Source: Paraspadella gotoi (Eukaryota; Animalia; Chaetognatha). From it: a DNA stretch of 34,071 bases. The stretch lies in the NCBI GenBank assembly GCA_051294375.1, contig JBJCIZ010000370.1:1-34071 (forward strand), given 5' to 3'. A model generated the notes under the pieces. It was not told where the DNA came from. It made no database searches and worked only from the letters and a program-made list of their open reading frames with translations. Positions within the stretch are counted from its first letter, which is position 1. Each line of letters begins with the position of its first letter. Positions 2,761 through 34,071 of this stretch are shown piece after piece. A program made the position numbers and the translations under genes.

Positions 2761-2771
2761 AATGGGAGATA

Positions 2772-6705: not shown

Positions 6706-6736
<31 letters not shown>

Positions 6737-6943
6737 NNNNNNNNNNTCTCTCTCTCTCACTCTCTCTCTCTTTCTTTCTTTCTTTCTCTCCCTATTTTTT
6801 TCTCTCTCTCTCTCTATCCCTCTTTGCCTTGTGTACCCTGTTGTTGTTATAATTACCATAATATTCTCCCTCAAGAAAAAGATTTAAAAGGTTTATTCAC
6901 ATCGATTCTTTCACATTGCCGTAAATTTTTCTCCATCAGCATC

Positions 6944-9772: not shown

Positions 9773-10499
9773 TACTTGGTAAACTTCCTCCTCTCTGTAA
9801 GGTGATCGATGTCGATCCTTCTGCAAGCCCGCGCATCGATTCCTCGTTACAATTGATCTAAGGAACGGACTCTCCTCAAATCGTCGCTGTCTGAATTGTG
9901 ATGGTTTCCCACTCGCCAATCTGGCGGTCCAGACCCGACGGCTCCCCTGATGCATAAACTAAATAAAATTCTCAAGAAAAGGTAAGGTAAGATCTGCGAT
10001 AGACCTGGAAAGAAAAAATTATGAATTGTGTAACAAATTTTTCTGATCTTAATTAATTTCATTTGTTATAAAAAACTATGGCCAATTATTTTTTCAACTC
10101 CTTGCTTCATAAAAAAAACCAGAACAATCTTACTTCAAATTTCGATGTCCTTTTGTTGAACCGCAAAGGCACGAAAAAAAAATTGGAAAAGATTGACGCG
10201 AAGCGTAATTTGGGATTTTCTCTCCTTTTAAATTTGTAGAATATTTAGGTAGGCGAAGAACGAGTAATCCTTTGGAGGCAAAAAACTTTATTCGTAACCA
10301 CCGCTGAACACCAAGTGGAGGACGGAATTTTTTAGTGAAAGGAATTCGATACCAAAGTAAAATGAACGAGAGTTTATTTCAGTATAACATCGAAGGGAAA
10401 AATGCGCGCAGAGAATAAAATAACAATGACTTTTATATGAACTACTTTGTTTACCAAAGTAGGAATGTGAAAGGGAATGGAATTTAGGCCGAGAAATTA

Positions 10500-12019: not shown

Positions 12020-12192
12020 ATCATTTTGTTTGATTTTTCCTCTACCCAAAAGTCCGGGATTCAAGCCGAATGGTTGCCGTGCAATTAAGAGGGACAGGGC
12101 GCCTAACCCGCCTGTAACATTAAGGTGTTACAGCCTGATCCGAAGCTGCAAGGACTGCTTAAATTGAACGGTTCTGCGACTAACAATTATTA
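12020..12192 (+). mobile_element. tRNA-derived SINE copy
   Basis: B-box-like GGGATTCAAGCC. The ~150-bp body is an inverted homolog of 23175-23355. Confidence 0.6.
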
Positions 12193-12278
12193 CTGTCTCT
12201 TCAGCACTTATTTTATATAAAATTTAAAATTTAACAATTTAATATCAATTAAAAAATATTTCTCTACATAATTTTTAT

Positions 12279-12488
12279 GGCTAAATTTTACTTTCGCCCA
12301 ACCGCGGTTTCAGCGGCTTTTGAAAAACCATTTAAAAATATTTTTTCACAAAAAAAAATAAAAAAATATTCCCTAATAAGCTTAAACCCTTAACCCATTT
12401 AACCCTAACCACCCCTAACCCTAAATCACCCCTAAACTACCTTAACCCTAAATCCATCCCTAACCCCGGTCGCTGAAAGTAAAAGTCC
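12279..12488. mobile_element. MITE-like element with an internal degenerate (CCCTAA)n array
   Basis: Inverted ends TTTTACTTTC (12286-12295) and GAAAGTAAAA (12475-12484) enclose CCCTAA-like repeats at 12370-12470. Confidence 0.5.
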
Positions 12489-13599
12489 CAATTTTTAAAT
12501 TTTAAAACATTTAAAAATTAAAAAAAAGCGGAAAATTAGGACTGATTTTAAAATTAAATTGATTGTTTTCGCAGGAAAAATTGATAAAAATTGTATAACT
12601 ATTACTTTAGTCATACAGACCATGGCTGTCGGATACGATGACGATGCCAGAGATATACTATTAAACCTTCCTGGCCATCTTGATAAGGTTGCGGACACTT
12701 GAAAACTCAAAAAAACTTATCACTTTATCAAAGATTCCCAGAAAGAATGCTGACGTAAGATTTTCTAGCTGCTGATTATCACTCTGGAAACCGCCAGCTG
12801 CGTTTTGATTTCAGTGGAACGGATTCAGTTAGCTGTTCTTTATACTTTTTGTTTAGCTGATTGTTTGGCTGACTGAGCGCGCGCTCGCAGTTTGGCTACA
12901 GCTTGACGGAGACCGTATGAGCGTAGATCCGTCAAAGGAATTCGTGGTGCTGATTTGAAATTGACGAAGTTGTTCAGCTTGAAGAGTAGATTCAGATGGT
13001 ATCAAAATAAGTCTCATTTATCTTTAGAGAAGGTCTTTTATTTGAAGTTGAAATCTTGCGATTCTTTGTAATTCGAAAAGATCAGATCTTGGAGACTACT
13101 CGAAAATAAACTTTTTGTTCGGGCGATCGAGGTAAACAATAGTTGTCTTGTTCTTTTTACCTTTTTTGTCTCCTATTGTCTAGTGACCTGTCCATGGATT
13201 AAAGAAAACTATATCAATTTTTAGAATTATTAGTTTACATACTTTAAACACATGAATCCCTTTCTGCTTTTTAATTCATTCATTAAGAATTATCCATTTG
13301 TGAAACGGTTGTGAATCCCTTCTCTGCAAATTATGTAGAAGAATTAAAAAAAAAGAAGTTAATTTTTTTTTACCATTTAATACCAAAATACAATGTATAA
13401 TAATAAAAAACTAAGCTAACCCTAGCTAAAAAAATTTACAAAAAAATATTCATTGGTATATATATACAAGCTCTGTCAAAAACTGGTTCTTCTTCGTTCT
13501 CTTCCTTTCTCCTCCTCCACTCTTCCTCCCTCACTCTCCCGCCTCCCCTCACTTCTCTCACCTCTCCCAATATATCCCCTCTCCTTTTCTTTCTTCTCC

Positions 13600-15627
13600 C
13601 TCCCCTACTACTACAAAACCCAATTTGTCTCGTGTTCTCCTCACCGCTGCTCGCCGCGACGCTGGTCACATAAGGCGCCCAGTTACGTCTGCCGCCTGAA
13701 GACCGCACGCCGACTCCCACGACGACGCCGAGTCCCCCACTAACGCTCGCGGATTGCTATTATGCTAAGAACGCTGTAGAAACAAATATTCAACCAGATT
13801 TTTATATAAAATCATTATCCTAGTTTCAATTTCTTTTTTTGGATTTTTAAAATATCAATTTTTTTACTCACATTAAACTGCTCTGCCAAAAGGGCCTTCG
13901 ATCCTCTTCTTCTTCTTCCTCCCTCGTTCTCGTCGTCATCATCGTCGTCGTTCTCGGAATTTCGAATCTGAAAAAAAAGATTTGAAGCAAAATTAGAAAT
14001 ATTTGTGGCAAAAAAAATCGCGTTTCGCGGCGAATTCTTTTTTAGACGTTTGAAAACTTTTTTAAAGTAGTAATGGTGAATGATGTAGTGGGTGGTGTTG
14101 ATGTAGAGGTTGATGGAGCGGATGATGTTGTAGAGTGTGATGTAGAGGTCGATGGAGTGGTTGATGGAGTGGATGATGTTGCTGTAGGGTGAGATGTAGA
14201 GCTTGATGGAGTAGATAATGTTGTTGAGTGTAATGTAGAGGTTAACGGAGTGGATGATGTTGTTGTAGAGGTTGATGGATGGGATAATGTAGAGGCTGAT
14301 GTAGAGGTGGTTGTAGAGGCTGATGGAGTTGATGATGTAGAGGATGTTGTGGAGGTTGTTGTTGAGGTTGTTGTGGAGGTTGTTGTGGAGGCTGATGTAG
14401 ATGGTGATGTAGAGAATGTTGTAGCGCTTGATGTAGAGAATGTTGTGGAGAATGATGTTTTTGCTGCTGTTGTCGTTTGTCGCCGCCGTCGCCAACTTGA
14501 CGGCCACGGCGCCACCCAAATTGGCGAAGTCGTCGTCCTCGCCACCCACACTCTCCCCGGTGGCGGCGCGGGCGTCGTCCACTCCATTGTTAGAGGTGGC
14601 GCAGGCGTCGCCTCCTCCGGCGCTGGACGCCAATATAAAGATGCTGGTCGTCGTGTGGAAGGTCGCCACGGAAAAGTTGGTATGGGCGCAGGTCGCAGAA
14701 CTTCTGGTGCAGGTCGCCAATCTTCTGGCGCTGGACGCCCACTCGTCGTTCTTGGCGCCGGACGCCGAGTCATCGTCGTTGTCCTCGGCGCTGGTCGCCT
14801 CGGCGCTGGACGCCAAGTTGTCGTCGTCGTTCTCGACGCTAGACGCCGAGTCGTCGTCGTTGTCCTCGGCCTCGTCGATGGACGCCACGGAAAAGTAGGT
14901 ATTGGCGCCGGTCGCCTATCCTCCGGCGCCGGTCGCCGATTCGAAGGCGCTGGACGCCAATCTACGGGCGCTGGACGCCAATTGACGGGCGTTGATCGCC
15001 GCGTCGTCCTCGGCGCCGGTCGCCGCGTTGTCGTCGTCGTCGTCAACCTCGGCGCTGGTCGCCGCGTCGTCATCGTCCTCGGCGCAGGTCGCCGCGTCGT
15101 CGTCCTCGCTCGCCACGTTGTCGTCGGCGCAGGTCGCCGTGTCGTGGTCGTCCAAGATGTCGTCGTCGTCACCCTCCTCGGCGCTGGTCGCCACGTCCTC
15201 CTCGGCGCCGGTCGCCAAGTTGTCGTCGTCGTCCTTCTCCTCGGCGCCGGTCGCCAAGTGGNNNNNNNNNNNNNNNNNNNNNNNNNNNNNNNNNNNNNNN
15301 NNNNNNNNNNNNNNNNNNNNNNNNNNNNNNNNNNNNNNNNNNNNNNNNNNNNNNNNNNNNNNNNNNNNNNNNNNNNNNNNNNNNNNNNNNNNNNNNNNNN
15401 NNNNNNNNNNNNNNNNNNNNNNNNNNNNNNNNNNNNNNNNNNNNNNNNNNNNNNNNNNNNNNNNNNNNNNNNNNNNNNNNNNNNNNATTCGTGGGTGATT
15501 TAGCTTACCAGCAGCAGCAGCAGCAGGGAATCGTCGACGATTGCGACGAACAACGACAGCTGGTTGAAATGGAACGTTCGGTGGATCAGCTTCTTCGCGA
15601 GTTGGAGGAGAAAAATGTGGGCCAAGC
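13600..15627 (-). CDS. Putative spliced mucin-like membrane protein (WRPAP-T repeats, S/T-rich stalk, acidic linker, hydrophobic segment)
   Basis: ORF 14042-15172 is continuous (RRPAPRTTTT repeats, then STTTSTTSS). Candidate exons at ~15508-15627 (AG..GT) and 13873-13967 (CAG|IRNSENDDDD..QFN|GT). A distal exon has VLSIIAI..ASVSGGLGVVVGVGV (needs a frameshift). A gap lies at 15262-15486. Confidence 0.45.
14590..15260. repeat. GC-rich coding minisatellite (GGCGC(T/C/A)GG(T/A)CGCC + (GTC)n spacers)
   Basis: Roughly 20 units of about 21-40 bp, open in several frames on both strands. Confidence 0.9.
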
Positions 15628-15994
15628 TGAAAATTGAACTCGGGCAAAGGGGGGAGTAAAAAAAAAGTAAACAATTAATAAATGTATATACAAATTATTA
15701 GCTCGCGTTTTTTTTCTCTTTTTGCTAATATATGTTTAAAAAAAAATAAAATGTCTCTTTCTTTCTTTCTTTCCTTCTTTCGTTACAAAGCGACTACAAA
15801 AAAAAGGGGGAAAAATAGATAGTATATTCTCCGTTAGTTACCTATATTAAAAATGGAGATGCCCATTTTTCATTGTTTTTTCCATACGTCAGAAAACAAA
15901 AGAAAGATAGGAAATTTTAGTAAATTACGTGAATTGTTAGTAACAAATTTAGTTAAATATTAAAAAGTATTTTAGAAAGAAAAAAAAAATCACG

Positions 15995-18965
15995 GCAATA
16001 ACTAGTTATACAAAGCCACTCGGTACGTGATCAAAAGAAGACAAAAAGAAAAGACAAAAAGGAAAAAAAGAAAAAGAAAAGAAACCGAAAACGCTCATTG
16101 TTATTGCTGTTGAAAAGACAGAGGGAAAATCTTTCATAATTGAAAAAGAGCGAGACAAAATATTAGAATAAAATAATAATAATAATTAATGATTGCCGCA
16201 AAAAAAAGGTGGATCGAAACCTATTACAAAATAGTCTTTGTTCAAACGTATTCGACTTCACCCGCAGCAAAAACAAAGGAATTTCCTGAGAAAATTATCA
16301 CAAAGAATACGATTGAAATTTTGCGTCACATAGAAGAAGAAAAGAGAAGAGAAGAAGAAGAAAAGGTCAGATCGTTACAAAAAGGATAGATCTGAGTAAG
16401 AAATAAATAATAATATGTTTACCTCTTTTAATATGTATTCAACTTCGAAAGCAACAAAAACAAAAGGACCAATTTCATAAAGAAGATAAAGGAGGAGAAT
16501 AGGAGGGAAAATGGAGAAGAAGAAAAACATAAAAAAAAGAGTCAGTACAATCTGTACAAAATGGATGGATTCTGAGAATGAATTTAAAAAATAGTTTGAA
16601 TGTGATGATATAAATACAAGATGTTAGTAAAAAATTTTAGAAAAGAAGCATATTATATTTTTTCGCAAAGAAAAAAGAAAGGTCCATAAATAAGCCAAAA
16701 AAACGCCCAAAAAAAACACATTTTCATGCCTTTCTTTCTTGGAAACCCATACCGTATGGAAATATATAATATAGGCAGAAGTTATCCCGACCACCGACCG
16801 ACCGACAAAATCTAAAACCAAGGGGAAATTGAAAGGAAAAAAAAAAAAAACTCGTCGTGAGCGAGCGTTTGTTTTTTTTCACTTTTTCCCCTTTTTTTTT
16901 CGTTGCAGAAAGGCGAGAGAGAGAAAGAAGAGATAGTAACTAATATTACTATACTAATAACTTAGCTTAATTCGCGTGGCGTCCCATCTCTTCTTCTCGC
17001 ACTCATTTCTTCGTTTAGACCCGGGAGAGGAGTCCATTTTATAGCAAAATTTTTTTTTTTTAACTCGCCGTTTAGTGGCAGGGTGGTGAAGGAGATTCGT
17101 TAATAGAGTAGGTAAAACTGCGTGGTTATTAAAAAAATAAATAAAAATAAAAATTTTACTCGGATATCGATATCGATAACAAGTCGTCCTTCGTTTTTGA
17201 GATTGGAGGAGCGTCCGAAGCTGCAGTTCGGACCTAAGTCTCTCTCTTCCGCTGATCATGCGCTCATTCTCTTCGAGTTCTCGCTCCTACTGGCTCCTGC
17301 CTCCTCTTCTCGTAAAAGGTTGTATAAGAGTGTCGTCGTCGCGGCTTCCCGTCCTCCTCGTCCGTCCTCGTGGCACGTGTCGATCCACTTTCTCGCAATT
17401 CGTCGGGTCGTCGTCGCGTCTCTCTCTTCGGATCCAAGATACCGCGACGATGCGCCAGATGATGGTTCAAGGAGGAAATAATAAGGACTCAGCCAGAAGC
17501 GGTGTGTCTATGAATAATATATTATAGTATGAGTATGTATGTACTTAAAAATGTAAAACATAAAAAAACGCGACGACAACTTCGAAAAATTGCGAGGAAA
17601 ATTTTTCCATTCGACTTGAATATGAAATATCCGCGTCTAAAATTGCGCGAAGCCTGTGTCGTCTGGTGCGATCGCGACTCAAGAGTCTTCGTACACTCTG
17701 TTATTATTTACGTTATGTTACGAATATTATATATTATAATAGGTTTCTCTCTTTCGGCCTTCATTCCTCAACCGATTGGTCAAACGTGAGCACCATAATC
17801 TTTAGTTATTCTTACCATCCGCGCTTTTTCTAATATTCAGTCCTCTCGGAAAAAGGCCACCTGCCGCAGGGCGGCACGGGCGAGCGGAGGGGCGGCGGAA
17901 AGCAAACCCTATCATCGTCGTCGAGTAGAGACTCCCCCTATCGCGGAGAGAGAGCGGAGGGGAGGCTGCTTCCCGACGCTCGTGAGAATCGGCGAGAGGT
18001 TGGGGGAGGCCTGGACCCCCAACCCCTCTCTCGCGCGGAATTCTCCGAGGTTGGACAAAAATTTTTTTTCTCCTCGCCCCCCTCTCCTCCTCCATCTCCC
18101 CCCTCTCGCCTCAAAAATTTTTTTTTTGGGAGAGGAGAGGAGGGAGAGGAGGAGGGGAGGATAGGAGGAAGAGAGGGGGAACGATACGGAGGAATTGAAC
18201 GGCGAGTAAGTGGAGGCGGGGAACGAAGAGAAGGCGGACTGGAACCTATCCCTCGTTATCGTATTTCTTTTTTGGCTTTTCCTCCCAAACAGTCCCCCTT
18301 GATTCTGCTAATCCTTCGGTCCGTCTTTCGTCGGTCGTCCAAATGCCATCTCAAAAAGAAACGAGAGACGAAAAAGAGATAGAGTGTATTTCGCGAACCG
18401 TACAAAGAAATCAAAAACAATCTCTTACAACTTTCATATACAGAAGGCATATTCGAGAGTAGCACGCTCGGTTGTATTACCTCGTATGAGCCTAAATCAT
18501 GAGCGAGTAGGAGCGCCGGGGTAGCCAATAACGAGAAAATATAGGGGGAACGGACCTGTCAGAGAGAGGCGGCGGACTTAGTCGCGCGAATAGCTAGAAA
18601 CAGTAACCTATAACAGGCTACCAGGGACCTGAGTAGAGTCCAATAACGGTACACTCGCGAAAGGGAGACGATAGTTTCTGCGCCAAAGCCAGCATAAACA
18701 ACTTTAAAAACAAAGAAAAACGCTTTTTCCAATGTAAAAAGAGATAAAAATTTCCTTAAAACACCGGAAACGATACTTTCAAAGGCCAGCGAAACAGAGA
18801 GCAAGATCATAGTTTCCCAAAGAAATAGCATTTCGGTTGAGAGAAACGCACTTGTATAAAAAATCCGGCCGGATTCAGTCGTGAGAGAGAGAGAGAGAAT
18901 GGAAGAATGAGAGAATGAAAGAGAGAATGAAAGAGAGAAAAGAGAAAAAGAGAGACGAGAGAGGC
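15995..18965. repeat. ~3-kb tandem duplicate of 18991-21220 + 27097-27650
   Basis: Colinear homology (e.g. 16011 vs 19005, 17450 vs 20428, 18240 vs 27170, 18810 vs 27505). The junction is a 25-N gap at 18966-18990, and the copies differ mostly by small indels. Confidence 0.9.
16954..18880 (-). pseudogene. Duplicate copy of the 3' exons of pPolB-2 (frameshifted)
   Basis: GFFIQVRFSQPK (cf. GYILEVDLEYPK), VREIHSISF (cf. KIHRVL.F), KAKKEI..NEGIG (motif B-like) and RFWLSPYY.PLNHHLAH (cf. KRYIL..TLPYGH). Confidence 0.65.
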
Positions 18966-21900
18966 NNNNNNNNNNNNNNNNNNNNNNNNNGGAATAACTA
19001 TTGACAAAGCCACTGGTCACGTGACAAAAACTTGTGACAAAAAAAAGACAAAAGAAAAAAGAAAAAAGAAAAAGAAACAGTGATACGGCTCATTTGTTAT
19101 TGCGGTTGACAGAAACAGAGAGGAAAATCTTTCATNNNNNNNNNNNNNNNNNNNNNNNNNNNNNNNNNNNNNNNNNNNNNNNNNNNNNNNNNNNNNNNNN
19201 NNNNNNNNNNNNNNNNNNNNNNNNNNNNNNNNNNNNNNNNNNNNNNNNNNNNNNNNNNNNNNNNNNNNNNNNNNNNNNNNNNNNNNNNNNNNNNNNNNNN
19301 NNNNNNNNNNNNNNNNNNNNNNNNNNNNNNNNNNNNNNNNNNNNNNNNNNNNNNNNNNNNNNNNNNNNNNNNNNNNNNNNNNNNNNNNNNNNNNNNNNNN
19401 NNNNNAAGGGACCATTTCTGAGAAAATATATCACAAAGGATATACAATCGGGAAATTTTGTGACACATAGAAGAAGAAGAAGAGAGAGAGGAAAATGAAG
19501 AAGAAGAAAAAAATAAAGAGTCACAATCAGTACAAAAGGATGATTCTGAGAATGAATTAAAAATTGAATATATATTGAATACGAATGTTAGTAAGAATTT
19601 TTAAAAAAGCATATTTTTTCCAAAGAAAAAAAAAAGGCCCAATAAAAAATGCCAAAAAAACGCCAAAAAAACACATTTTTCATGGCCTTTCTTTTCTTTG
19701 GAAAACCCATACCGTGGTAGTATGTTAAAAACGTATGGAATAATAATAATAGGGCAGAAGTTTCGTACCGACCACCGACCGACCGACGAAAATCTGAAAA
19801 CCAAGGGGGGAAAAGGAAAGGAAAAAAAAAACTCGTGAGTGAGCGTTTTTTTTTTCACTTTTCCCCCCTTTTTTTTTTCTGTTCGCCGTTCGAAAGAAAA
19901 GCAAAAGAGAGAGAGAAAGAGATAGTAACTAATATTACTACTACGAATAACTTAGCTTTATTCGTCGGTGACGTCCCATCTTCTTCTTCTCGGCATCCAT
20001 TTTCTTCGTTTAGATTCGTTAATAGAGTAGGTAAAACGGTGGTTTTATTAAAAAATTAATAAAAAAAAATTGTTACTACGATATCGATAAAAGTCGTTCG
20101 CTTTTTGGACGGACTTAGAGAGGTCCCGCTGCAGCGATAGCTGCGTCGGACGCTGCTAAAAGTTACTCTCTCTTTCCGCTGGATCATCGCTCTCGTCATT
20201 TGCTCATTCTCTCCGAGTCCGCTCCTACTGGCTCCTCCTCCTCCTCCTCCTCTTCTTCAATTAAGGGGTGGATAAGAGTCGTCGTCGTCGACCTTTCTCG
20301 TTGTCCTCGCCGTCGTCATCGTCCCACTTTCGTCGGTCCCGCTGGGCCATTCTCGTCGTCCCATTTTTTCGTCGTCCTCGTCGTCATCGTCTCTCCTCTC
20401 TTCGGCGTCCAAGATAGCCGCGGCTCGATGCGCCAGATGATGGTTCAAGGGGAAGGAATAATAAGGAACTCAGCCGAGAAGCGTTTGTCCTATTAATAAT
20501 ATATATATGTATGTATATATGTATGTATAAATGTAAACAAAAAAAACGCGACGACTAACTTCGAAATTGCTGAGGGAAATTTTTTCCAATTCGACCTTGA
20601 ACATGGAATATCCCGCCGTTCTAAATTGCGCGAGCCTGTGTCGTCTGGGCCGGTCGTGACTCAAGACGTCTTCGTACAACTCTGTTATTATTATTTACGT
20701 TATTATAATATTTACATTCTTCTTCTTTCTCTCTCTCCTCTCACCGGTATTGGTCAAACGTTGAGCCACCAATCTCTTGGTTTTTCCTTTACATCTGGCG
20801 CTTTTTTCCAATATTCGAGTCGGNNNNNNNNNNNNNNNNNNNNNNNNNCTCTCGGAAAAAGGCCACCTGCCGCAGCGGCGGCGGCAGCGGTAGGGGTAGC
20901 GGCGGGAAAACAACCCCCTATCATCGTCGTCGAGTAGAGGAGGCCTCCCCTATCGCGGAGCTAGAGGAGGCGGAAGGAGGAGGGTGGCTCTCCGACGCCT
21001 CGGAGAATCCGGCGAGAGAGTTGGGGGGGGCCTGGAAGGCCCCCCCAACCCCTCTCTCGCGCGGATTTCCGAGGTGTGACAAAATTTTTTTTTTCTCCTC
21101 CGCCCCCCTCTCCTGCCTCCATCTCTCCTCCCCTCCTCGCCTCGAAAAATTTTTTTTTGGGGAGGGAGGAGGAGGAGGGGGAGGAGAGGGGGGGAAGGGG
21201 AGGGAAAGGAGGGGAAGATTGAGGGGGTGTGCAAAAATTTCAAAATCATAGTAGCTCAATTTACATCCGGCACAATATGTGGGGGTTAAAAAAGTATGTT
21301 TGCCCAAATCTCATCGAATTTGCTTCAACACCCTTAGCAACTACCTCGCTTAAAGGATTTTTGGCACACCTTTGACTAAAAATTAATTGTTTAAAAAATA
21401 TGACTTGTTTATCGTCACTCAACTTTATTAGCTGAGGAACTCATCAAGATTATTTTCACATCATTGAAGTGCTCATTTCATCCCAAGCGCCTTCACAACT
21501 GGCTCCACAGCAAACGCTGGAGGATGTGGAGTTGATAACATCATTGCTTATAATTCCTAACATTCAGGGTAGAATCTCTTACTTTGACATAGTTTTTTAC
21601 ACTAATATGTTCCTCTATATAAATCAACAACATTTGATTTTTATTTAGAGGTGGTGGTTACATCCTGGAGGATAATTTCTGTTTCCTTTTTTTATTTTTA
21701 ATAAAATTACTATTTTAAAATTACATTTTTCGGATAATTTACATTACAGGCTGATGTAAGATGATACAAAAATTGGTCAGATTCCAAAAAAATTGCATGA
21801 ATTAAGCGTAGGTTTCAAGAGAGCCTCTCTTGAAGGATCTGGGAGCACACTCAACACCCCTTTAAATGAGTAAAGATACCTTATTTTTTAATTAAAATGC

Positions 21901-22849
21901 TTCTTTGGTTAAAAATTTTATGACCAAAAATTATGCTTCAAGTTTTAGTTACACATAATACCATTAAAAACTAGAAATATTTTTAATACTGCATATGCAA
22001 ATGATTTTGTATCATATTTGCTTCACTAGAGAATCGTTTGAAGAACAATAAACAAAAAGGGGGACAAATGTACGAATGTATTTGAAGAAATTTTATTTAA
22101 TTAACAGTGCTAATTAACAGTGCTAAGTAAATGTAAGAAAGAATGAATATAAGCTTTATAAAGGAAGAATGACTGACCAGAAAGAAAGAAATAAAGAAAG
22201 AAAGAAAGAAAACGAGAAAAAAAGAGAGAAAAAAAGAAAAACGAAGAAAAAAAGGAGAAAGAAACAAAAAAACGAGAAAAAAAGAGAGAAAAAGAAAATT
22301 AGTAAAAATAAAAAAAAGAAAACGAGAAAGAAAGAGAGAAAAAGAAAACGAGAAAGAAAGAAAGAAAGAAAAATGAGAAAGAAAGAGAAAAAGAGAACGA
22401 GAGAAAATTAATATTATTTTTTTATTTCGTGTCAAAATCGTTTTTTTCCAAAACAAAAACAAAACACAATCTCGATCACAAAAGTTAATTAATAATTAAT
22501 TAATTACAATAATTAATAATTAAATTAATTACTTATTATTTATTACCTACTTATTAAATGTAGCTTTAATTTAAAATTTAAGGCACTTTTTTTCAAGAAG
22601 CCCCCTTGCTGCGGCTCCTGAAGCAGCGGACCCAGACACACGCACAAAAATCATATCTTTGCTACTTCCATCATCGTTTTATGCGTCACTCCTTTAGTCG
22701 TTACTCTCACCGTTTCCCCGCAACAGTTTCCTCATCGTTCAAATTATCTTCGTCTTTCTGTTCGATCCCGATCTGAAGAGGCTTAATTCTTTCTCTCTTT
22801 CTTTCACCAGCAAGTCAGAATTTTATGTTGCAAAAGTGCGTAGGAAAAA

Positions 22850-22935
22850 CTACCCTAATCCCAACCCTAATCCCTACCCTAATCCCTAATATCTATCCCC
22901 TAAACTAACCTTATCCCTAACCGAAACCCTAAACA
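22850..22935 (+). repeat. Degenerate (CCCTAA)n array within a repeat element
   Basis: CCCTAATC/CCCTAAAC units flanked by the direct repeat CATCGTTCAAATTATC (~22733 and 22942). Confidence 0.7.
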
Positions 22936-22962
22936 ATTATCCATCGTTCAAATTATCGTCGT

Positions 22963-23947
22963 TGTATTGAACTAAGTTCGAGAAGTGGCTGTCCTGATCT
23001 AACTGACAAGGCTAATTCTGCGCATTGAAGACCAGATGACTCGGGTTAGAATGGCGCAAAAAAGGAGACGATGACGCCGGTCATGATGCCCTGGAGATGA
23101 TGACGACAAGTCTCGGTAGGATGACGAACTACGAAAGTCCAGGACTTGACAAAGTTCAATTGAAGAGACAGAAATTATATTATGTGTTAGTGACAGAACC
23201 GTTCAATATAAGCAGTCCCTGAGCTTCGATCAGCTGTAACACCATTTACAGGCGGGTTAGCGCCCCGTCCCTCTTAACTGCCAGACGACCACCGGGCTAG
23301 AACCCGGACCTTTGGGTTGGGAGGCGAAATGAACTTGCTTCCGCACAATGGCCGCTGATGAACGGTTGGTGGATTTTAGTCCACCATACAATGTGTCTGA
23401 TGCTGGAAGCTTTGTAGAGTCTGTAGCTTGTGAGTGTGTAGTCTGTAGTTAGCAAGAAAATAACAAGGAATAACAAAACATTTAGTACAAACTCAGCAAT
23501 ATATATAAGTTTAAAGTGTCCCTTTCTACTTGTTTCTTGAAGCCAATAATAAACAAAAAGAGATGCTTCTTTTCATAAAAAAAGTCCACCAAACAAGCGA
23601 TCACCAAAAAATAAGATTCCGAGATATCTGAAAAAGAGTTTCTATGCTCTGAAAGAACTAAAAACCCAGTGACCACTTTTAGAATCTGAAGATACCACGT
23701 GGTCAGAATTCGATTAGAATCAAATAGAAATTTATCGAAATCACGGGCACCAATCAGAATCAGCTGTACACTGGCCTTCGGGAAATCTGTACTTAAGTAT
23801 ACAACAAAAGAGAGAGCTAAAGATGTCGCTGCAATCGCTAGAACGGAGGCATTTTCGATGTCAGTAATAAAGAACAAAAGATCAACGGGGGAAAAAGGTA
23901 GAGAATCTGGATTTTTCTCTAATATAAAAGATAGTTATTTCGTAACA
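22963..23947. mobile_element. Solo LTR (contains an inserted SINE)
   Basis: TGT...ACA ends; inverted homolog of 25562-26291; flanks GTCGT/GTCTT form an imperfect 5-bp TSD. Confidence 0.7.
23175..23355 (-). mobile_element. tRNA(Gly-CCC-like)-derived SINE
   Basis: Minus strand GCGGCCA..TTCGCCTCCCAACCCAAAGGTCCGGGTTCTAGCCCGGTGGTCGT gives an acceptor stem, CCC loop and T-arm/B-box. The body matches 12040-12190 and is absent from the sister LTR. Confidence 0.65.
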
Positions 23948-24169
23948 GTCTTGGTTTTTTGTTCATCCAGATCCTGACTGAGTCATCCAGCCAAAGAGAG
24001 AGACAGCGAGAGAGATTCGCTGCTCCGTCATACGGCAAGTGGGCATCGAAGAGCATTTCGCCCAAAATCGAAGTGAATCGCCACATTCACTCATAGAGTA
24101 ATGACGTTCAAATTAGTGAAATATATTTTTTTGTTTTTTCCATTTAACTCATTTCCACTCGGACGATTT

Positions 24170-24350
24170 CCCATCAAAACTTGATTGATTTCCAGCTCAA
24201 TCACACACTTTCCTACCCACACACAAAATTTCAATCCAATCCATCCATCCAATATCACGAGTAATTGGACTTTTTTTTGCTAAGGTGGGATGAACGGACA
24301 GACGGACAGACAGACAGATGGACCGACAGATGGACGGACATCAATTTTTT
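24170..24350. mobile_element. Helentron/DINE-1-like remnant with a (GACA)n microsatellite
   Basis: CACAAAATTTCAATCCAATCCATCCA followed by a GGACAGACGGACAGACAGACAGATGGAC tract. Confidence 0.45.
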
Positions 24351-25561
24351 TCATAATTTATCAAGAAAAAAATTTTGAAATGTTTTGATGAAACAAAATT
24401 TCAACTTTTTTTTCTAAATCTCCTCAAACTAAAAAGAACAGAATAATACAATGGCTACTCATAAATTTATCATAATTCGATGTTCTGACATGATATAAGT
24501 GAATGCCCGACAAGATTGGGGGCGGCGGACCGAGACCGACAAAGTGAATTATAGAGCCGGAATCTGCTGTAAGCAAATCCGGAAGGAGGAAGACGAAAAG
24601 TCGTCTGTATTCAGGCATCTCAATACTTTTCATGAAAAAACATTATAAATAAGTTTTAGTAAAAACAAAAACAAACATGACGAAACTATAATAACAAGCA
24701 CTGTCCTTTTTTCAAATTCTTTGTTGGAGAACCCTTTCTCTCTCTCTCTCTCTCCCCCTCTCTTTTCCAACATTGTGAAAATTGTAAAAATTGTGAAAAT
24801 CATTTAATTCGCGCCTGAATAAGGTCTCAACATGTACATTATTTGTTTCTATTTTAAAAATCGTTGTTTTTTTAACACAAAACAAAATGTCTTCTCTCAA
24901 ACTAATTCACAACTCATGAAAAGAAACCATTTCACACAATACTATTCCCTTGAAACTTAACAACTTTAAATTCTAATAATTAAATACAAATTGTTGTATT
25001 GTTATATATTTTTTTTATTATTGGCTATTGTTGTCCTCTTTTCCCATTTTTTTGCCTTATTCTTATTTACTTGACTATATCCAATAATATTAAGCGTTTG
25101 TAAGATGTTCAATTATTAATTGTCTCTGTGGTTGCTGTTGCTATTTTCCCTTTGTGAATTTTATTTTGAACCAATCGTATATTCATTTAATGTTTTATTA
25201 TAAATATTTATATATATATTGTGCCAAAAATGTCTTAAATAAAATTATTCTTTGATAAGTATGCATTTAATAATTATTTTTACTCGGGTGACTTGAAATG
25301 TCCTCAGTCATTTACATGACCTTAGTCACAAAGATTCCTTTCACCAAAATTCAGTAAATCCTCTGTTGTCGCGTTGTCGTCATTGTCGTAGTTATAAGAC
25401 CTTCCGGTTAATTAAAAATAGGATTTCCTTCAAATATATTTGTACATTTATCCGCCTTTTGTTATTGTTCTCAACAAATTCTCTAGTGAAGCAAATATGA
25501 TACCAAAATCCATTTTGCATAATGGCAGTATTAAAAATATTCTCTAGTTTTTAATGGTATT

Positions 25562-26291
25562 TGTTACGAATCATTAATCAATATATATAACCGTGAAATC
25601 AAACTTCTCTTCTTCACCCCGATGGCTCTTTTATTTCTATTTATAAACGCAAGGAAATTCTATTCTTTCCGCGATCAACAGCGAACATCTTGGTTTCGAA
25701 TTTGTATCATAGTATATATACTTAAAGTACAGCTTCGAGTGGCTACGCATGGCTGTTTCTGATGGTTCCCGCCGTTCTTTAGATCTCAGCCTTGATTTCT
25801 ATCGATGTGGGACCTCTCAGTTTTGTTCAGTCTTGCAATGCCGTTTTAACTACTTTTTAAAAGATAATAAATCGCTATTTAAGATATCTCGGAAACCCTT
25901 CTTTTTTAATAAGTAAACTAGTGATCGCTGGATTGGTGGACTTCCTTGTGTAGAGGCAACCAATTTCTACAAATTTGGCTTCAGAAACAAGTAAGATGGT
26001 TCTTTAAACTTAATATATATATTTGCTGAGTGTGTATTAAATGTTTTGTTATTCTTGCCCAGGACTCTAACTCTACTCTACTCCTCTACTCAGATACACA
26101 CTAGAAGTTGCTGGGACTTAGGACTTTTGTCGTTCATGATCATCTTAGAGCGTTCAAGACCCGGCAGCCATCGATCTCGTTCCGCGCCATCTAAACTCGA
26201 TTCCGGTACTTCGTTTTTTGATAGCGGCAGGATCAGCTCAGCAGTTAGTTGTCAACGACAGCACACCTCTACGAACATAGTTTCACATACA
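25562..26291. mobile_element. Solo LTR (730 bp) inserted in the right TIR
   Basis: TGTTACG...CATACA with a perfect 6-bp TSD GGTATT (25556-25561 and 26292-26297). The left TIR has the single empty site AATACC (~21957). Confidence 0.85.
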
Positions 26292-29200
26292 GGTATTATG
26301 TGTACTAAAACTCTGAAAGCATAATTTGGTCATAACATTTAACCATACAGAAGCATTTTTTATATTTTAAAAAAATGAAGGTATCTTTACTCATTACTAA
26401 AGGGGTAGTGTGCTCCCAGATCCTTCAATGAGAGCTCCTGAAGCCTACGCTTAATTCATGCAATTTTTTTGGATCTGACCAATGTTTGTATTCACTCTAC
26501 ATCACACTGTAATAGTAATTATCCAAAACATGTAGATTAAAATAGTAATTTTATTAAAATTAAAAAAACAGTAACAGGAAATTATCCTCAGCGACTGTAC
26601 CACACCACTAAAATAAGAATAATGTTGTTGATTTATAGTAGTAGCGAACATTATTAGATTAATAAAACAGTGTACAAAGTAAGAGATTTCTACCGATGAA
26701 TTGCGTTACGGAATTATAAGCCAATGATAGTTATCAACTCCACATTCCTCCAGCGTGCGTTTGGAGCCAGTTGTGAAGGCTGTGGAATGAAATGAGCACT
26801 TCAAATTGGATGTGAAATAATCTTTGATGAGTTCCTCAGCTAATAAGTTGAGTGCGAACGGAATAAACAAGTCATATTTTTTAAACAATTAATTTTTTAG
26901 TCAAAGGTGTGCCAAATCCTTTAAGCCGAGGGTAGATGCTAGGGTGTTAGAAAAAGCAAATTCGATCGAGATTAATTTAATGGGCAAACATTATCGATAT
27001 TTTTCGTATACACCTCTGGCGACATATCTCGTGCCAGGATGTAAATTGACAACACCCGCTTCTAACTCATGCATTTTGAAATTTTTGGCACACCTCGGGG
27101 ACATGTATAGAGCGGGAGGGAATGGTACGGCGAGTAAGGAGGCGGGGTAAACGAAAGAAGAAGGTGAGACTGAACCTTCCCTCGGTTATCCGTTATTTCT
27201 TTTTGGCTTTTCCTCCCAACAGTCCCTTGATTTCTGCTAATCTCTCGGTCGTCTTCGTCGCTCGTCCAAATGCCTCCAAGAAAGAGGACGAAAAAGAAGA
27301 GGAGACGGTCGCCACCTCCCTTTCTCGATTATCTCGAGTAGATCGACCTCGGGATCGTAATCTTTCTCGAGTGGGCGCCGGGGTGCCTCGAGAAAATAGG
27401 GGAGGAATTTCGGGGGGCGGAGTCGCGATCGGACGCCTCGGCCCAGGGACCGTGGTCCTCGGTAACTCAAAGGCCAAGTTCTGCCGCCGCGCCGCCGCCG
27501 CCCCATAGTTTCCAAAGAATAGCATTTCGGTTTGAGAGAAACGCACTTGTATAAAAAATCCGGCCCCGGATTCGTCTGAGTGAGAATAGATGAAGAATGA
27601 AGAGAATGAAAGAGAATGAAAGAGAGAGAGAGAGAGAGAGGATGGGCTCTCACCTTTTAAGCAACCGAGTCTGTTCTATTACGATCCCTCCACATTCGTA
27701 ATATAGGTATTCTATCCTTGTTTTCCAACCAATACGGATGGGTTTCTTCGGGACTATAATTAAGTAATTATAAATAATCTAATAATGATAATATATTAAT
27801 CAATTATTATTTACTAGTCTTTAACGTCCAAAATGAAACAGAGATGGGCCCAATCGCGCCAAAACAAGCCAGTCGACTCTCGTAGTCTTTCGTCATGGCC
27901 AAAATATCGGCCAGCTGATTACTCAGGATGGTGAAAAAAACCTCCTTTCGGCAGAGGGTACGACATCGCTTTACCTATAATATTCAAAAAAACGCGGAGA
28001 TAAGTTACCCGTATTGTTATTATATTATATTATTATACTTAACATAGAGATTGGTAAAATCTTGATAAATTGAGTACTGCCCTCGTCCTCGTTGTCGAAA
28101 CCCACTTGGTCATTGTTCGCTACGGCGTAGCGCGGGAAGAGAGATCAGTCGGATACAACAATGGACGGGCGATCGGGTCTTATATTTCTCGTTCGCTGTC
28201 ACTGGCGCTTTCCTATTGGAAAGGCGAAGTCAAGTGTCTCCGATCGTCTAGGACACCGTTCAAATGCGGTACTTTTTTATTTTATTTTTGGTCATTTTAT
28301 ATAGTTTATCTCGATAAAAAATATTAATATAAATTATATTTTTTTAAAAGTTTTACCATTTACCGCCGCAACTGGTCAAACTAAGACGGTGATGTTGAAT
28401 CTGGGAACCGTTTATTCTTTCCCTCGTCGAATTCCAACGCTGATGGGATTTCGCGAAAGAGGAGAAGTCGCGTTTGTCGCGATGAGACGACGATGACGAG
28501 ACAGATACGACGTGGGCACCAATAAGAGGGCTAAAAAAGACATTAGAGAAATGCGCGTTTAATTTGTTTAATTTGTGGTTTAATTTTCCTATAAATTCAA
28601 GTTTTTTTTTGTTTTTTTTGAGAAAAGATAACGCATGGCGGAATGAATGGAGATGGATACAATTGCGTAGATCCCCATTTCCAACGGTGCCTTGAGCTGG
28701 CCCATCGAATCGAGTTTTGGGCAGGAAGCTCACGTTCATGCTTCGAGTCTTGAGGAAACTACGCAATCTGTTTTCATCGCGAATACGAGTGGTGGGACCA
28801 CATCAATCTTCCATCATCATTTCGAGGTTTCACGGGGAGTCGGGAAGAAATAGCTTTCTGCAGGTAGATGCCGAGAACGATCCGGACTTGAAGCTGTAAC
28901 AGACAAAAACTTTTTTTTTTGACCACGAACTCCAAATCCGGACATCGCCCAGCTAAAAACATAACTTTTCCTTCTTAAAAAAATTAGTACTAAATCCTTA
29001 AAATTCATAGTCTTATTTCATCGATTATTTATACGTCGAAGGTGATTATCACATGTAAGAATGGAATCGAAACTTAATTTGTGAAATAGGAACAATATTT
29101 ACAATTCTTGCGAGAATTTCGAAACATATACGATATCTTATCAAATTTTAAAATGTAATAAGAGTTTAGAAATTGGGAAAGAAGGGGAAGAATTTATGAT

Positions 29201-30194
29201 GATCAATTTAAATTAAGTTACCGGTCATTTTTTTTCATAAATTTAACGTAGAAAAATTTAGGGGAAAAAATTTTGATAAGATGGCAAGCAATGGTGTACA
29301 AAAGTGTTAGGAGACTCTGAGAATGTAACAAAATGAACACTCGCCATCCGATCTTAGTAGCCCGCCGCAAATGTTCTTCGCGATCCATAAATGCGCCGAA
29401 TTTCTTAAAATCAACCCTATTGAAAATTTAGTAAACAAATCGTATGAATACTAATTTTATTTTTTTTAAAAAGAAATATGCCTCTTTCAATGGAAATGAG
29501 TAAATTTTTTTTGAATCCTGATCGAACTTTGCAAAAACTATGCTTCCACATTAACTGTTTTATATTTACTACATAGTGGTGTAATATATCTTCACCGACG
29601 TTGTCCGTCCTTTCCGTCATTCCAAATCAAATTACTGTTCCGGCGGAGAGATCTGGTGGCGCGCGAGGGTCAACTTCTGAACCACCTGACCGTTCTCAAG
29701 GAGAATTTGATCTCTTTCGAACATCTCGTCACGTTTGTCAAAATCGAGTCACGATCCCATTCATTCCTTACGTCAAGTTGAGAATGCTCGACGGGAATCA
29801 CACCTGGACCCGATAATGTCACATTTTAATTAAACACTTTTGAAAACTGTTGCTTTTGGCATTTTTCCGAAACTGATTTTAGCTTACAATGAAATCCTAC
29901 AACTAATCAAAGTTTTTGAAAAATTAATTATTAGCAGTAGTAAGAAAATTGTCCCTAGTAATAAAAATATTATATCCTCATGTAGCTAGTTTTACTTTAA
30001 TTAGAGAATCGTTATACGACTGTAATAAGATAATTTCGACTAAATTTTATGACTATATATAATATCAATTTAGAGAATAAAATTTTAGAAGCGCTAATGA
30101 AAATGGACTCGGATAAAATTTGTTTAAAACAACGAAATGATGTTTTGACTTGTTGAAAAAAATTGTAAATAAATGTTTTTTAAAATCAAAACAG

Positions 30195-33100
30195 ATGCCT
30201 TTCTTTTGACGATGACAAAGAGTATAGACAAAAGTAAGCGATACAAAGAAAGCGTCAATCGAAGACAATTCGAAGCGAACTTTCCTTGTTCTAACGACTC
30301 TTCCCATCTTCCGACTCCTCGCCGGATTCCTTTCGTTCGCGAGACGGAAACCGTTTGAAGTTTGTTGGAGGAGGAGCAACAAGCGCAGATCCAATCAACA
30401 AGGGCGACGGACGATGGCGCCGACACTCTCGACGATCAAACTTCCCTGTTGCAGTCCGGATCTCTGTTTTGGAGGAGGAGGAACAGAGCCGCTTCAGGTC
30501 GGAGGAGGTAGAAGCGAAAAGGAAAAGAGAGGACGAGGTTTTTTCTCCGCGAAAAAAGACTCTCATCGACGACGACGATGACGAAACGACGATTCGGAAT
30601 CAAGACGTCGGGTCAAACCGGGGTCGACCTCGGTCATAAGCGATTTCATTCCAAAAGTCGATCACCAAAGGAAAAAGATAGCGTTGACGGAGGAAAGAAG
30701 AATGAGGAGAATGACGATTCCGGTGGCGCCGACGATGGGCGACATGTTATCGCGTCAATCCAGGGGATGCCGCAAATATCGCAACATCGTTAAACGGTTA
30801 GACTCGTGCCAACCTAGCTGGCCGACTACAAACGGCTCATCTATCGTCTGCAGAAACAATGAAATTCATCAAGGGCATGTTGAGGCGGGTTCCGGTTGTA
30901 AAATTTCAAACGTCTGCATCTATGGTCACCTACCTTCGTCCCGATGAACGATGAAAGCGTCCAATTTTATTACGACCAAAATCCGGAAACTCATCAATCT
31001 GGGGACGGGATTTGGACGCGCCGTTTTGGATCAGATCATGGGCCTGGTTTCCTTGCAAATTGAAAACAAATTGGAAATCGGGTATTTTTTTTCTTCTTCC
31101 TCTTTTTAGTTACTTACTGCTAGCGAATATTTTTATTTTTCTTTTTTCCCATCAGGAAAGTTTTTCTTATATTTCAAAACGTGAGCCTAGGCGGATTTTG
31201 GACTTTTATCCGCATTCTTCCAACTTTCTTTTTACAACCTGCGGTCTCTAAAAAGTCATCGGCTCGTTCATTGCGAGACCCGCGATTTCATACAATCGGA
31301 AAAAAGCAGTTACCAACAGTGAAGATCGAGAGATCAAACTGTTTACGTGATCTTCGCTTTTAGCGGGACTCATCCGGAGATTGCCGATTCCAAATCGAGG
31401 CCCGGGTTAAATATCTCAATACTCTCGCGAGAGATTAATTTTTGGGCGATCTCCTCGAAGAGTTGCCCGTTTCGATTATCGGAACTTAAAAAAAAGATCG
31501 AGAGCCTGAACCCCTCGCTCGCGATAAAAGCGTACTCTTACGTGGCAAGAATGAACAATAGGGGAAAAAATAAGAGCATTCTTTTTTCCTCCTTTACGTA
31601 TCGGACCGAAATGGAACTATGGATTGCGAACGTTAGGGTTGTAATTTTTATTAAAGTTATACACAAAAAGTCATCTCACTTTTGTACTATTAACTCCATG
31701 TCCTCGTCTTCTCGGAAAACAAGGTTCAAATCCTTAACAAAAAGAAAACTAACACGTGTCCTAGGCAAGTGTAAAAAATCCTGTCCTTTTAATCTTCTTT
31801 TCTTCTTCTTTTCTCAACTTAACAAGCCCCTCCCCTTCAGATTGTCTATAATTCCACGAGTCGAGAGTTTACCTTTTTTTGCTCACTTTCGAATCTGCGT
31901 CCTTTCGACAAAAACGCAGTGTCAAATATCCTCAACCGGGGTCCGTGAATGAAGTTTTTTAAACATCATCATTATCCTTTACGTACAACCCGTACGTGAT
32001 AATACAGCGGATTTTGAGACATATCCAAAGCGGCGCCAGAGGTCGAAAGGCGTCCCGGATGTCACACCCTTTGACCGAAAGAAAGATGATCCATTTTATC
32101 CTTGGGTCAAGACTGACTTACATCTGAAACACGTGACAAATATGTCACGTTTGCAACCGCTTTGAAACGTGTGGAAAATCCGCGCGGTCGTGGAATTACC
32201 AGCGGAGATATGTGCCCCTTATCGTATTGCTACAACGTTCACACAGCGAGTTCCCCGAAGATCAATTTTCCTCCGAGATCTTCAATCGGTCCGGATATGC
32301 GCCAAGCTTATTCGTCGCCTCCTTGAAAGGACGCTAAGCTTTTGTACGGTCTGCTCCATTTATTTCCGGATCCGACAATTTTGACCGGCGAAGAGTTGAA
32401 GAGAGCAACACCGAAACCACTCATTGCGACTGTTTGCCACGAGTTGCTCAAACGATGAGAAGTACCAACTATCGCGTGCTGGATCATTGTTGGCGAACCT
32501 GGGAAATTATAGGGAACCATGGTCAAGTTAGTGAGCGAGTGAAATTCATCCTTAAAAATACGACTCCACTTTCATCTTTTTTTTTCCTTTCTTATAAAAG
32601 ATCTTGCAACGCGAAAATATACCAGTAAGATCGCAAGTGTACTCTTATTATCATAACATGAATTCGAACCCGCGGCAATCTTTCACGCTTTGAAGGATCG
32701 GAAGACGACTTCAACGTCAAGTCCGTCACCAAATATTCTGACGGAATCTTCGATGAAGAAATTTATTTCCATTCGACATGAGGTGATTTTTTTTTTTTTT
32801 TCTTCTTCTATTCATTTTTTTTCCCTCGCCTTTATCCCCCTCCTCTCTCTCATCTCTCCTCTCGAGGTTTAACTGGCGATTTTTGCAAAACAAAGGCCGA
32901 GAAAGGTACGACGATGAGGACGACGATGATGACGACGACGGCCGGAGAGGATCAGTTCGACGACGACGTAGACGAATTTCGAATATCGTGGCGAACAAGG
33001 ATCACGATTAACTTTTTCCCGATACGAACGAGGTCGACGACAGAAAGGGCCGCCGAGTCGGAGATTCTCTCCGAATGGGATCGACTCAGAGATCGAGAGG

Positions 33101-34071
33101 AAGATGAGGGAATTGACCTGTCAATGTTCCTAAAATTAGTACAATCAGAGTGAAATGTAACTTACAGGTATTGGGAGAAAAGAATACAAAAAATTCAATC
33201 ATATTTCTCGACTTAAATTTCTACTTTGATAAACAACAGTAGTTCAATATACAAAACAATTGTTTAATTTTATTCGACGTTCTCAATTATTATTATTTCT
33301 TTAACTAAATAAATTACTCTTCAATTTCACCTCGGCGTCGAATTATTTACTAGTATAAAACAAATTAACTTAGTTATCTCTCTCTTCTTCTCCCTCCCCC
33401 TAGGTTTCAGTCTTTCCTTCCCTCGCGGCTACTGATCGATAATTTGACTACGGAATCGAGAGAAAAGTTAGGGGGGCGTTTGTTGTCGGGAACCAGTGTC
33501 ACGGCTCCGTGCGTAGAATGCGCGCCCAATTAAAACTTTGAAAGAGCCTTTTCAAACGGTATAACGAATATAGTCGCGGAAACTTATGGAGAGACAAAAG
33601 GGTCAAAATTTCATGGAAATTTTTAAACAAAAAATAAAAAAATGGCCCATATTCGGCAATTTTCGTTGGACCGCTTGAGCGAATCCCGACCTTCCTCCAT
33701 ACAGACAGAATTCACGACGACATGTAGTCCAAAGGAAATTTTGTAGTCAACGAGATACCGAAAAAAACCCTCGGCAATTTACCGGATGTTTAACTTTAGC
33801 AGACTTTGGACAGTTTATTCTATTTTATAACATCATAGACGTTCTGACCTTGGAAGCCGTTTTTTGAATATTCATCGAAAATACGAATTAAACCTTCACG
33901 GCATTCTCGCCGACCCATTACTACGGTTTCGACGGGAATCGGTCTCGACATTTTTTTTGTCAATGAGCAAAAGTGGAAATTCCATTATTCGCCGAAGCCG
34001 ATTCCCTTCAATATTTGACCTACGAGAGGATGATTCGGGGGGGGCGTATGCCGCGGTTTCCCGAGCGCTAT
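30195..34071 (+). pseudogene. pPolB-1: spliced Polinton-type protein-primed DNA polymerase with C2H2-like finger and endonuclease VII insert (3' part beyond the window; many frameshifts)
   Basis: RKKAVTN, INF..CPFRLSELKKKIESLNPSLAIKAYSY, HFCTINSMS, CPR|CL..H...C, PYVI.ADFET (ExoI, ~31990-32021), RVLDHCWRT..SCN (EndoVII, 32476-32610), HNM..KKFISI (ExoII), YNIIDV (ExoIII, ~33826) and MIRGG (~34030). Introns at 31082-31155, 31765-31840, ~32530-32600, 32783-32866 and 33168-33403. Confidence 0.85.

Follow-up and report, generated by a model that had tools for sequence, protein, structure and literature searches.

In the window analysed here, a 34,071-nt stretch of Paraspadella gotoi DNA taken at its full length, two genes related to protein-primed DNA polymerases (pPolB) lie back to back in divergent orientation, pPolB-1 on the plus strand and pPolB-2 on the minus strand. 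The reading we favour, at somewhat less than even confidence, is that a single integrated Polinton-type element carries both, with pPolB-1 as its predicted working polymerase and pPolB-2 as an old, catalytically dead accessory paralog that would grip primer-template DNA.

A divergent pair of pPolB-related genes

Both genes were recovered by frameshift- and intron-aware alignment to a Polinton-type profile, a check that the initial annotation had named when it proposed the pair. The region of pPolB-1, 29900-34071(+), scored 88.8 bits (z 23.3). Two regions of pPolB-2 also matched, 27100-29900(-) with 34.8 bits (z 5.3) and 19400-21250(-), its 3' part, with 37.6 bits (z 9.6); the remaining 11 of 14 region/strand tests gave z ≤ 1.7. 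With plain hmmsearch, three of 1337 stop-to-stop pieces reached E < 2, all of them within the two genes and weak (E 0.002-1.2). Neither gene forms a long ORF, as had been noted. GT-AG introns were located in both (eight in pPolB-2 and four in pPolB-1, picked by eye, so the count is not unbiased), and the start codons of both genes are uncertain.

Table 1. Features of the two genes and the DNA around them (a slash marks a splice point)
Feature	Position	Strand	Remarks
pPolB-1	30195..34071	+	4 or more GT-AG introns; window ends before motif A is reached
AT-rich spacer	29880..30195		316 nt, 23% GC; may hold short first exons
pPolB-2, 5' exons	28133..29860	-	~370 codons; no significant block match
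pPolB-2, RY and motif A, then post-motif-A stretch	27815..28132	-	Asp of motif A kept; split by intron 28043-27975
pPolB-2, short exon, intron, post-motif-C block	27500..27753	-	Intron 27653-27576; GCLK/DE ... CVSLKPKCYS
GC-rich stretch (~800 nt), first part	27115..27500	-	Within thumb-coding region; coding insert or long intron
5.9-kb insertion	21220..27100		Inverted arms of ~870 nt or more, 21226-22105 and 27094-25407
GC-rich stretch, second part	20850..21219	-	Strong hairpins (z -6.4)
pPolB-2, thumb exons	20430..20823	-	KxKG, last conserved exon, DKR after intron 20547-20490; then acidic stretch
Second copy of pPolB-2 3' half and downstream DNA	15997..18954	-	Noisier; no insertion, junction near 18185

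Polinton/Maverick (adintovirus) pPolB proteins have a TP-vOTU-Exo-palm architecture, as outlined in 10.1101/2024.03.18.585575, and pPolB-1 resembles them in its vOTU, Zn finger, Exo motifs, HNH insert and family order. An acidic leader is followed by a weak TP-like region, the vOTU, the Zn finger, ExoI, the HNH insert, ExoII, an acidic insert, ExoIII and RGG..RY; the acidic inserts distinguish it from the known proteins. The TP region reaches z 2.0 and the other segments z 4.4-12.1, among them the vOTU region (z 6.9), the ExoII segment (z 4.4) and the last exon with ExoIII (z 8.5), and the His/Zn and ExoI blocks were each matched by 0 of 100 shuffles. Four of the nine N-terminal blocks were significant, and the other five missed the 0-of-100 level. 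The palm of pPolB-1, which is predicted to be a working protein-primed polymerase, lies beyond the window.

Exonuclease-region and RY motifs had been described in both genes. The RY part stands (34060s on the plus strand, 28132 on the minus strand), whereas the Exo motifs are found in pPolB-1 and not in pPolB-2, where none of the nine N-terminal blocks (Exo motifs, vOTU, TP) is significant, against four in pPolB-1. The description of the genes as paralogs rather than halves fits, since RY occurs in both, the genes point away from each other and no motif B or C is seen in pPolB-2. A single gene split in two was rejected on the same motifs; without B and C, pPolB-2 could not supply the catalytic half. 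The genes share no nucleotide similarity, again as noted earlier (best blastn E 0.09), and 30 exon-pair comparisons gave no convincing protein similarity: three beat all 40 shuffles, marginally and without collinearity. pPolB-2 is thus likely to be an old paralog. The spacer, previously given as ~330 bp and AT-rich, is indeed so (Table 1), and contains no TIR and no repeat longer than 22 nt.

What pPolB-2 keeps and appears to lack

The initial annotation ended pPolB-2 at 27100, which is too early: the gene continues to the thumb exons at 20823-20430 and so spans ~29860 to ~20450 (-), across the 5.9-kb long-TIR insertion. An alternative end near 27250 was rejected (z 0.1 as thumb end). The N-terminal region is shorter than that of all 44 references, which have 540-971 residues before motif A, and in its 5' exons the ExoII-to-LP region is indicated once, weakly and post hoc (z 2.5). 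Further on, pPolB-2 has the motif A, post-C block and thumb end typical of Polinton/Maverick pPolB. The RY/motif A region scores 45.6 bits against a shuffle maximum of 31.5, and z 5.9 in a separate test; the motif A block, at 39.7 bits (0 of 200 shuffles), is the top match of the whole minus strand. In the better copy the post-C block (23.9 bits) and the thumb end block (30.9 bits) were likewise reached by 0 of 200 shuffles; the thumb exons give z 9.6-13.8, and z 6.7 in a separate test. Three introns lie inside motifs whose halves join across the GT-AG ends, at LY/G, at K/DE and before DKR.

Motif B and KPIY+motif C (DTDS), the most informative blocks of the profile (maximum 158 and 162 bits), were not found. 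Motif B was equalled by 155 and 56 of 200 shuffles in the better copy and by 12 of 200 in the noisier copy, and KPIY+motif C by 98 and 78 of 200 in the better copy and by 9 of 200 in the noisier one; the sequence examined for motif C amounts to a single noisy read. No fuzzy codon match to motif B was found in the pPolB-2 region, and the rest of the window, both strands included, scored no better than shuffles for the two blocks (7-14 of 20 shuffles). A DTDS-like string with one base missing, at 27676, lies on bases that read GCLK in another frame, and 15 such strings occur in the window. The distance from motif A to the G..K.E motif is 266 exonic nt (~89 codons); of 48 aligned references, 44 have 280-366 residues there. 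Noise can hide motifs, as for the five pPolB-1 blocks, and in the noisier copy of pPolB-2 neither the post-C block nor the thumb block was recovered locally. The stretch without B and C (27660-28060) has no second representation in the window and may reflect an assembly skip. The deficit of ~200 codons before the post-C block roughly equals the length of the unexplained ~800-nt stretch after it, one part of which resembles a post-C block in one copy (z 4.6) and scores z 0.0 in the other. The middle of the gene may therefore be collinear yet beyond recognition; the first part of this stretch matches no profile as fingers (z 0.0) or thumb (z 0.1). In this family, binding of the incoming nucleotide and of the catalytic metals depends on motifs B and C, and pPolB-2 is likely unable to copy DNA.

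The insertion is AT-rich, and its right arm is itself interrupted. Its long inverted arms were considered as the element's own TIRs and rejected: their outer ends point into pPolB-2, and an empty site exists in the second copy, which may be an allele, a duplicate or a gap-filling overlap. The two copies differ by 37 substitutions against 93 gap openings over 895 columns, and for this reason the frame breaks look like raw long-read errors. Alignments with cheap introns strayed into the AT-rich insertion and were discarded.

Element context and relatives

A CpG-rich signature covers about 13500-21200 and 27100-34071 and is mostly lower in the insertion and the left flank. This common signature, together with a spacer free of TIRs and long repeats, indirectly supports placing both genes in one element. 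None of the other Polinton core genes (integrase, capsid, ATPase, protease) was found within the window, where the element is incomplete. The best integrase profile match, a K-rich segment at 15663-16596(+) with 35.9 bits, was rejected, as 1-2 of 100 shuffles reached its score and the second copy did not repeat it (19.9 bits). Thirteen ORF-cluster profiles from reference loci gave no convincing match to capsid, packaging ATPase or protease within the window; these clusters are not formally annotated, the profiles are distant, the DNA is noisy and the element is cut by the window end. Element ends, TIRs and a 6-bp TSD were not identified within the window, the inverted arms found there being those of the insertion inside pPolB-2.

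The Pfam pPolB families gave no match in six noisy frames, and no relevant Pfam family was found on whole frames of both genes or of 12500-27100. A PF03175 call occurs in one of 120 relatives of the matching family, among the matches listed. This makes the 'group 2' label of the initial annotation doubtful, and the class appears to fit 'Beta'/group 1, as these are set out in the account of 10.1101/697771, better than Alpha/'group 2' (PF03175-type).

Searches with pPolB-1 frames found no relatives at E ≤ 10 among 1836 candidates or at E ≤ 0.001 in 1.84 billion representatives, a weak search because the queries were mostly out of frame, and none were found in searches with the last exon of pPolB-2. 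Two motif patterns derived from the window matched one viral contig each, and both matches were unrelated sequences or arose by chance out of frame. A second pPolB was seen in 0 of 106 reference loci, the four that had been flagged owing their signal to overlaps at frameshifts or to a chimeric piece of 1.3 kb; 24 of these loci had at least 2.5 kb upstream (weak HNH-only matches in six), the set included some contigs twice, and the scan might miss a gene that has diverged as far as pPolB-2. Our searches found the pair in no homolog and in no other genome. With no relative found and no further Polinton core gene in the window, the idea of an undescribed lineage with a conserved two-polymerase module gains no support here. 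In the literature searched, no Polinton is described that has a dead pPolB paralog or more than one pPolB gene; supplements and paywalled texts might hold one.

Competing explanations and known systems

The 'accessory' half of the earlier proposal, 'one active, one accessory', is supported by the absence of B and C, the short spacing and the kept motif A, post-C block and thumb; the transposon within one pPolB-2 copy counts against it, as does the fact that our searches found neither a homologous pair nor, within the window, an integrase, capsid, ATPase or protease. Under the accessory reading, both genes would be transcribed from the common spacer and spliced by the host, and pPolB-1 would prime on a terminal protein and copy the element. 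The thumb and palm remnant of pPolB-2, if maintained by selection, could hold duplex DNA at the element ends or the fork, where it might contact pPolB-1 and act as its helper or brake by gripping primer-template DNA. A broader version, in which an undescribed intron-rich Polinton-type lineage runs a two-gene module of active pPolB plus pseudo-polymerase (the paralog minus fingers and motif C) serving as clamp, end-binding scaffold or brake, strikes us as rather unlikely.

The same transposon, the lost B and C and the short N-terminus would also suit a decaying relic: a once complete pPolB-2, perhaps displaced by pPolB-1, would have passed through internal deletion and insertion and now be inert. 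A weak direct repeat flanking the ~800-nt stretch (3 and 6 of 300 shuffles) points the same way, as do the erosion of 96% of vertebrate Maverick loci given in PMC8097293 and the pPolB replacement among Polintons described in 10.1101/2023.08.22.554363. However, the surviving blocks and the splice sites within motifs have stayed intact in a gene that has otherwise diverged extremely, a copy without the insertion exists and most frame breaks resemble read error; we regard a relic as a serious but somewhat unlikely reading. If read error or an assembly skip had hidden B and C, pPolB-2 could instead be complete, active and very divergent, giving two working polymerases. Error at raw-read level, single coverage of 27660-28060 and a total motif A-to-KxKG length that comes close to normal once the GC-rich stretch is counted as coding all leave room for this; yet the two most informative blocks sit at shuffle level while three weaker ones were found, the fingers/TPR2 reading gives z 0.0 where pPolB-1 controls reach z 6.6-11.3, the hairpin region as motif C gives z -0.9 and 0.5 in the two copies, and the post-C block follows only ~89 codons after motif A. 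We consider this reading improbable. Chance adjacency of two unrelated insertions is the least probable: the genes are mutually dissimilar, their best references differ by score, with small margins, and no reference locus has a second pPolB, but they lie only ~316 nt apart without TIR or repeat and share intron style and CpG-rich composition.

To our knowledge, each element is credited with one protein-primed polymerase, regarded as a single enzyme sufficient in itself. Inactivated family-B modules are known in the C-terminal half of eukaryotic Pol epsilon and in the archaeal PolB2 group, where a dead fold persists next to an active one and serves as its scaffold or DNA-binding partner. The accessory reading of pPolB-2 would resemble these by analogy, although they are cellular, RNA/DNA-primed enzymes, and our searches found no dead paralog among protein-primed viral polymerases. 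Nematode Polintons offer another comparison: as presented in 10.1101/2023.08.22.554363, two very divergent types, pPolB1 and pPolB2 (16% identity), occur in one host genome, with an HNH insert in one class. There the two types define separate element classes, by replacement, and both retain all Exo and Pol motifs, whereas the two genes in the window are neighbours, one of them without B and C. A second, divergent pPolB-derived gene of this kind, in a window without visible core genes, also differs from known Polintons/Mavericks, as do the introns, which intact vertebrate Mavericks lack in the account of PMC8097293. Introns do occur within integrated Polinton-like elements, the introner-containing Maverick-Polinton-like proviruses of dinoflagellates (PMC11957031), which differ in host group and intron origin and for which that account, as far as it goes, gives no two-polymerase module.

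This case is one noisy locus. If kept, the dead paralog would add a pseudo-enzyme to this polymerase class and might be a point at which a genomic parasite is controlled; if pPolB-2 is a relic, the locus would still preserve two neighbouring polymerase lineages, the picture expected while one polymerase replaces another. Intron-split genes such as pPolB-2 would escape standard screens, because these ask for long intron-free ORFs (900 aa in the screen described in 10.1101/2023.08.22.554363).

Motifs of the two polymerase genes

pPolB-1, the plus-strand gene of the head-to-head pair, belongs to a known family and is spliced; its catalytic half lies beyond the window. Profiles were built from natural Polinton-type polymerases (113 sequences at first, 48 later) and aligned to the DNA with a purpose-written frameshift- and intron-aware program, with shuffled DNA as the null. 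pPolB-1 scored 88.8 bits (z 23.3), and four GT-AG introns were placed in it. Four of its nine single blocks exceeded all 100 shuffles; the remaining five were matched by 5-15 of 100. The window end cuts the gene at RY, directly 5' of motif A, leaving the catalytic motifs outside. Plain hmmsearch supported the two genes weakly (best E 0.002), and a Pfam search of whole frames returned nothing relevant.

On sequence grounds, pPolB-2, the divergent minus-strand gene, descends from the Polinton-type polymerase family yet lacks two defining motifs. Motif A (39.7 bits), the post-motif-C block (23.9 bits) and the thumb end (30.9 bits) each exceeded all 200 shuffles in pPolB-2 itself, the better of two copies. 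Motif B and KPIY plus motif C scored at shuffle level there, and likewise throughout the window on both strands. Between the aspartate of motif A and the G..K.E motif lie 266 exonic bases; the same interval in 44 of 48 aligned references spans 280-366 residues, in which motif B occurs at 134-221 and motif C at 234-321. Read as fingers/TPR2, 27756-27115 gave z 0.0 versus z 6.6-11.3 in pPolB-1 controls. Located 3' of the post-C block is a GC-rich stretch of ~800 nt with hairpins, where references have 18-40 residues. A search for a split or damaged motif C gave z -0.9 in one copy and 0.5 in the other for this hairpin region. Within the expected span, a single DTDS-like string with one error occurs (27676), made of bases that also give a GCLK reading. 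The exonuclease motifs reported for pPolB-2 in the initial annotation were not recovered: its 5' exons (about 370 codons) match none of nine N-terminal blocks, and one weak hint (z 2.5) places their start near ExoII. The ~800-nt stretch is bordered by a weak direct repeat some 35 nt long.

Features and their coordinates. Limits of segment tests were picked after inspection, so z below about 4 counts as a hint only.
Feature	Position	Strand	Remark
pPolB-1	~30195 to window end	+	
pPolB-1 TP-like region		+	z 2.0, hint-level
pPolB-1 vOTU		+	z 6.9
pPolB-1 Zn finger-ExoI-HNH		+	z 12.1
pPolB-1 ExoII		+	z 4.4
pPolB-1 last exon		+	z 8.5
pPolB-2	~29860 to ~20450	-	
Match to three reference C-termini	20733-20542	-	z 9.6-13.8
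Weak direct repeat	27500-27460; 20890-20850	-	3 and 6/300 shuffles
Insertion	21220-27100		no Pfam match
Fragment breaking right arm	about 25560-26290		
Partial inverted copy of fragment	23464-23947		
Second copy of pPolB-2	15997-18954	-	3' half
Strong GC hairpins	20960-21230; 17980-18190		z -6.4 at the former
Exon-like stretches	15490-17400; 19400-20450	-	no family match
Coding stretch	13800-15260	-	mucin-like Thr/Ser and acidic repeats
ORF, CxC4 and KDZ transposase domains	3883-6291	-	802 aa, intact
GC-rich inverted repeats	2770-2930; 9590-9774		flank KDZ ORF
Gln-rich repeats	near 8160-8360		18 nt
TAACCC-like tracts	12380-12470; 22850-22930		
Dispersed repeat	12030-12203; 23161-23333		170 nt

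Extent of pPolB-2 and its insertion

The initial annotation had placed this gene in 27100-29862. A gene is present there, but it does not end at ~27100, as thumb exons and C-terminal matches lie farther on. The blocks 19467-21219 and 27115-27640 are joined without interruption in the second copy, and the intervening sequence is flanked by inverted arms measuring some 870 nt or more; the outer ends of these arms point into pPolB-2. We therefore regard it as an insertion, of which the second copy is the empty site. A target duplication of 9-10 nt is possible, in sequence too noisy to call. The strong GC hairpins occur in both copies, exactly at the insertion site.

Readings of the pair

The incoming nucleotide is bound through motif B, and the catalytic metals through motif C. 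Without these motifs, the pPolB-2 product as read would be incapable of polymerising; its thumb and palm remnant could still grip duplex DNA. Although pPolB-2 has diverged extremely elsewhere, the splice sites inside the motifs that survive are intact, which suggests that the gene was maintained for a while; we tentatively propose that it may be a retained non-catalytic helper or brake of pPolB-1. Somewhat unlikely, in our assessment, is a mere relic. Repeated stretches within the window, which holds gaps of 10 and 25 N, differ chiefly by indels (93 gap openings and 37 substitutions over 895 columns between 17400-18260 and 20300-21300), a pattern that resembles uncorrected long reads from gap filling; frameshifts thus reveal little about gene decay. 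That an intact gene is masked by error is unlikely. Some results nevertheless speak against the non-catalytic reading, as does the weak hmmsearch support. An assembly skip may have occurred, because the short motif A-to-post-C spacing is covered once, and noise concealed blocks in the second copy. The length missing before the post-C block roughly equals the surplus downstream. At 21010-20870 one copy looks like a second post-C block (z 4.6), but the other does not (z 0.0).

We consider it quite improbable that the genes are unrelated neighbours. Their 316-nt spacer (23% GC) contains no repeats longer than 22 nt. A model trained on pPolB-1, which in part tracks GC content, finds a CpG-rich signature across both genes and over about 13500-21200; in the insertion and the left flank this signature is for the most part weaker. 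The initial annotation called the genes paralogs; they share no DNA similarity and no convincing protein similarity, and are thus either old paralogs or of separate origin.

Comparison with published elements and other features of the window

Polintons are outlined as carrying pPolB and integrase among 5-10 ORFs (PMC6431247); 13 cluster profiles found no other Polinton core genes in the window. TP and vOTU domains are described as part of pPolB (10.1101/2024.03.18.585575), intact vertebrate elements as intronless (PMC8097293), and introners as present in dinoflagellate elements (PMC11957031). The initial label 'group 2' is doubtful, as the matching family appears closer to the Beta class outlined in 10.1101/697771. 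Two pPolB classes of element are described in nematodes (10.1101/2023.08.22.554363), each with all motifs, whereas pPolB-2 fails two. A second polymerase was found in none of 106 reference loci, a weak negative; the searches run returned no relatives of either gene, and the literature searches run turned up no two-polymerase element. The pair is known from one noisy locus.

The coding stretch at 13800-15260 shares its CpG-rich signature with both polymerase genes and may be part of the same element. Downstream of pPolB-2, the short exon-like stretches have T-rich introns and acidic and hydrophobic runs. The window also contains short spliceosomal introns, microsatellites and the KDZ transposase, features that point to an animal host. 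The transposase lies within ~2770-9774, which is probably a full-length Zisupton-like element, possibly with a second spliced gene bearing the Gln-rich repeats. The dispersed repeat lies close to both TAACCC-like tracts.
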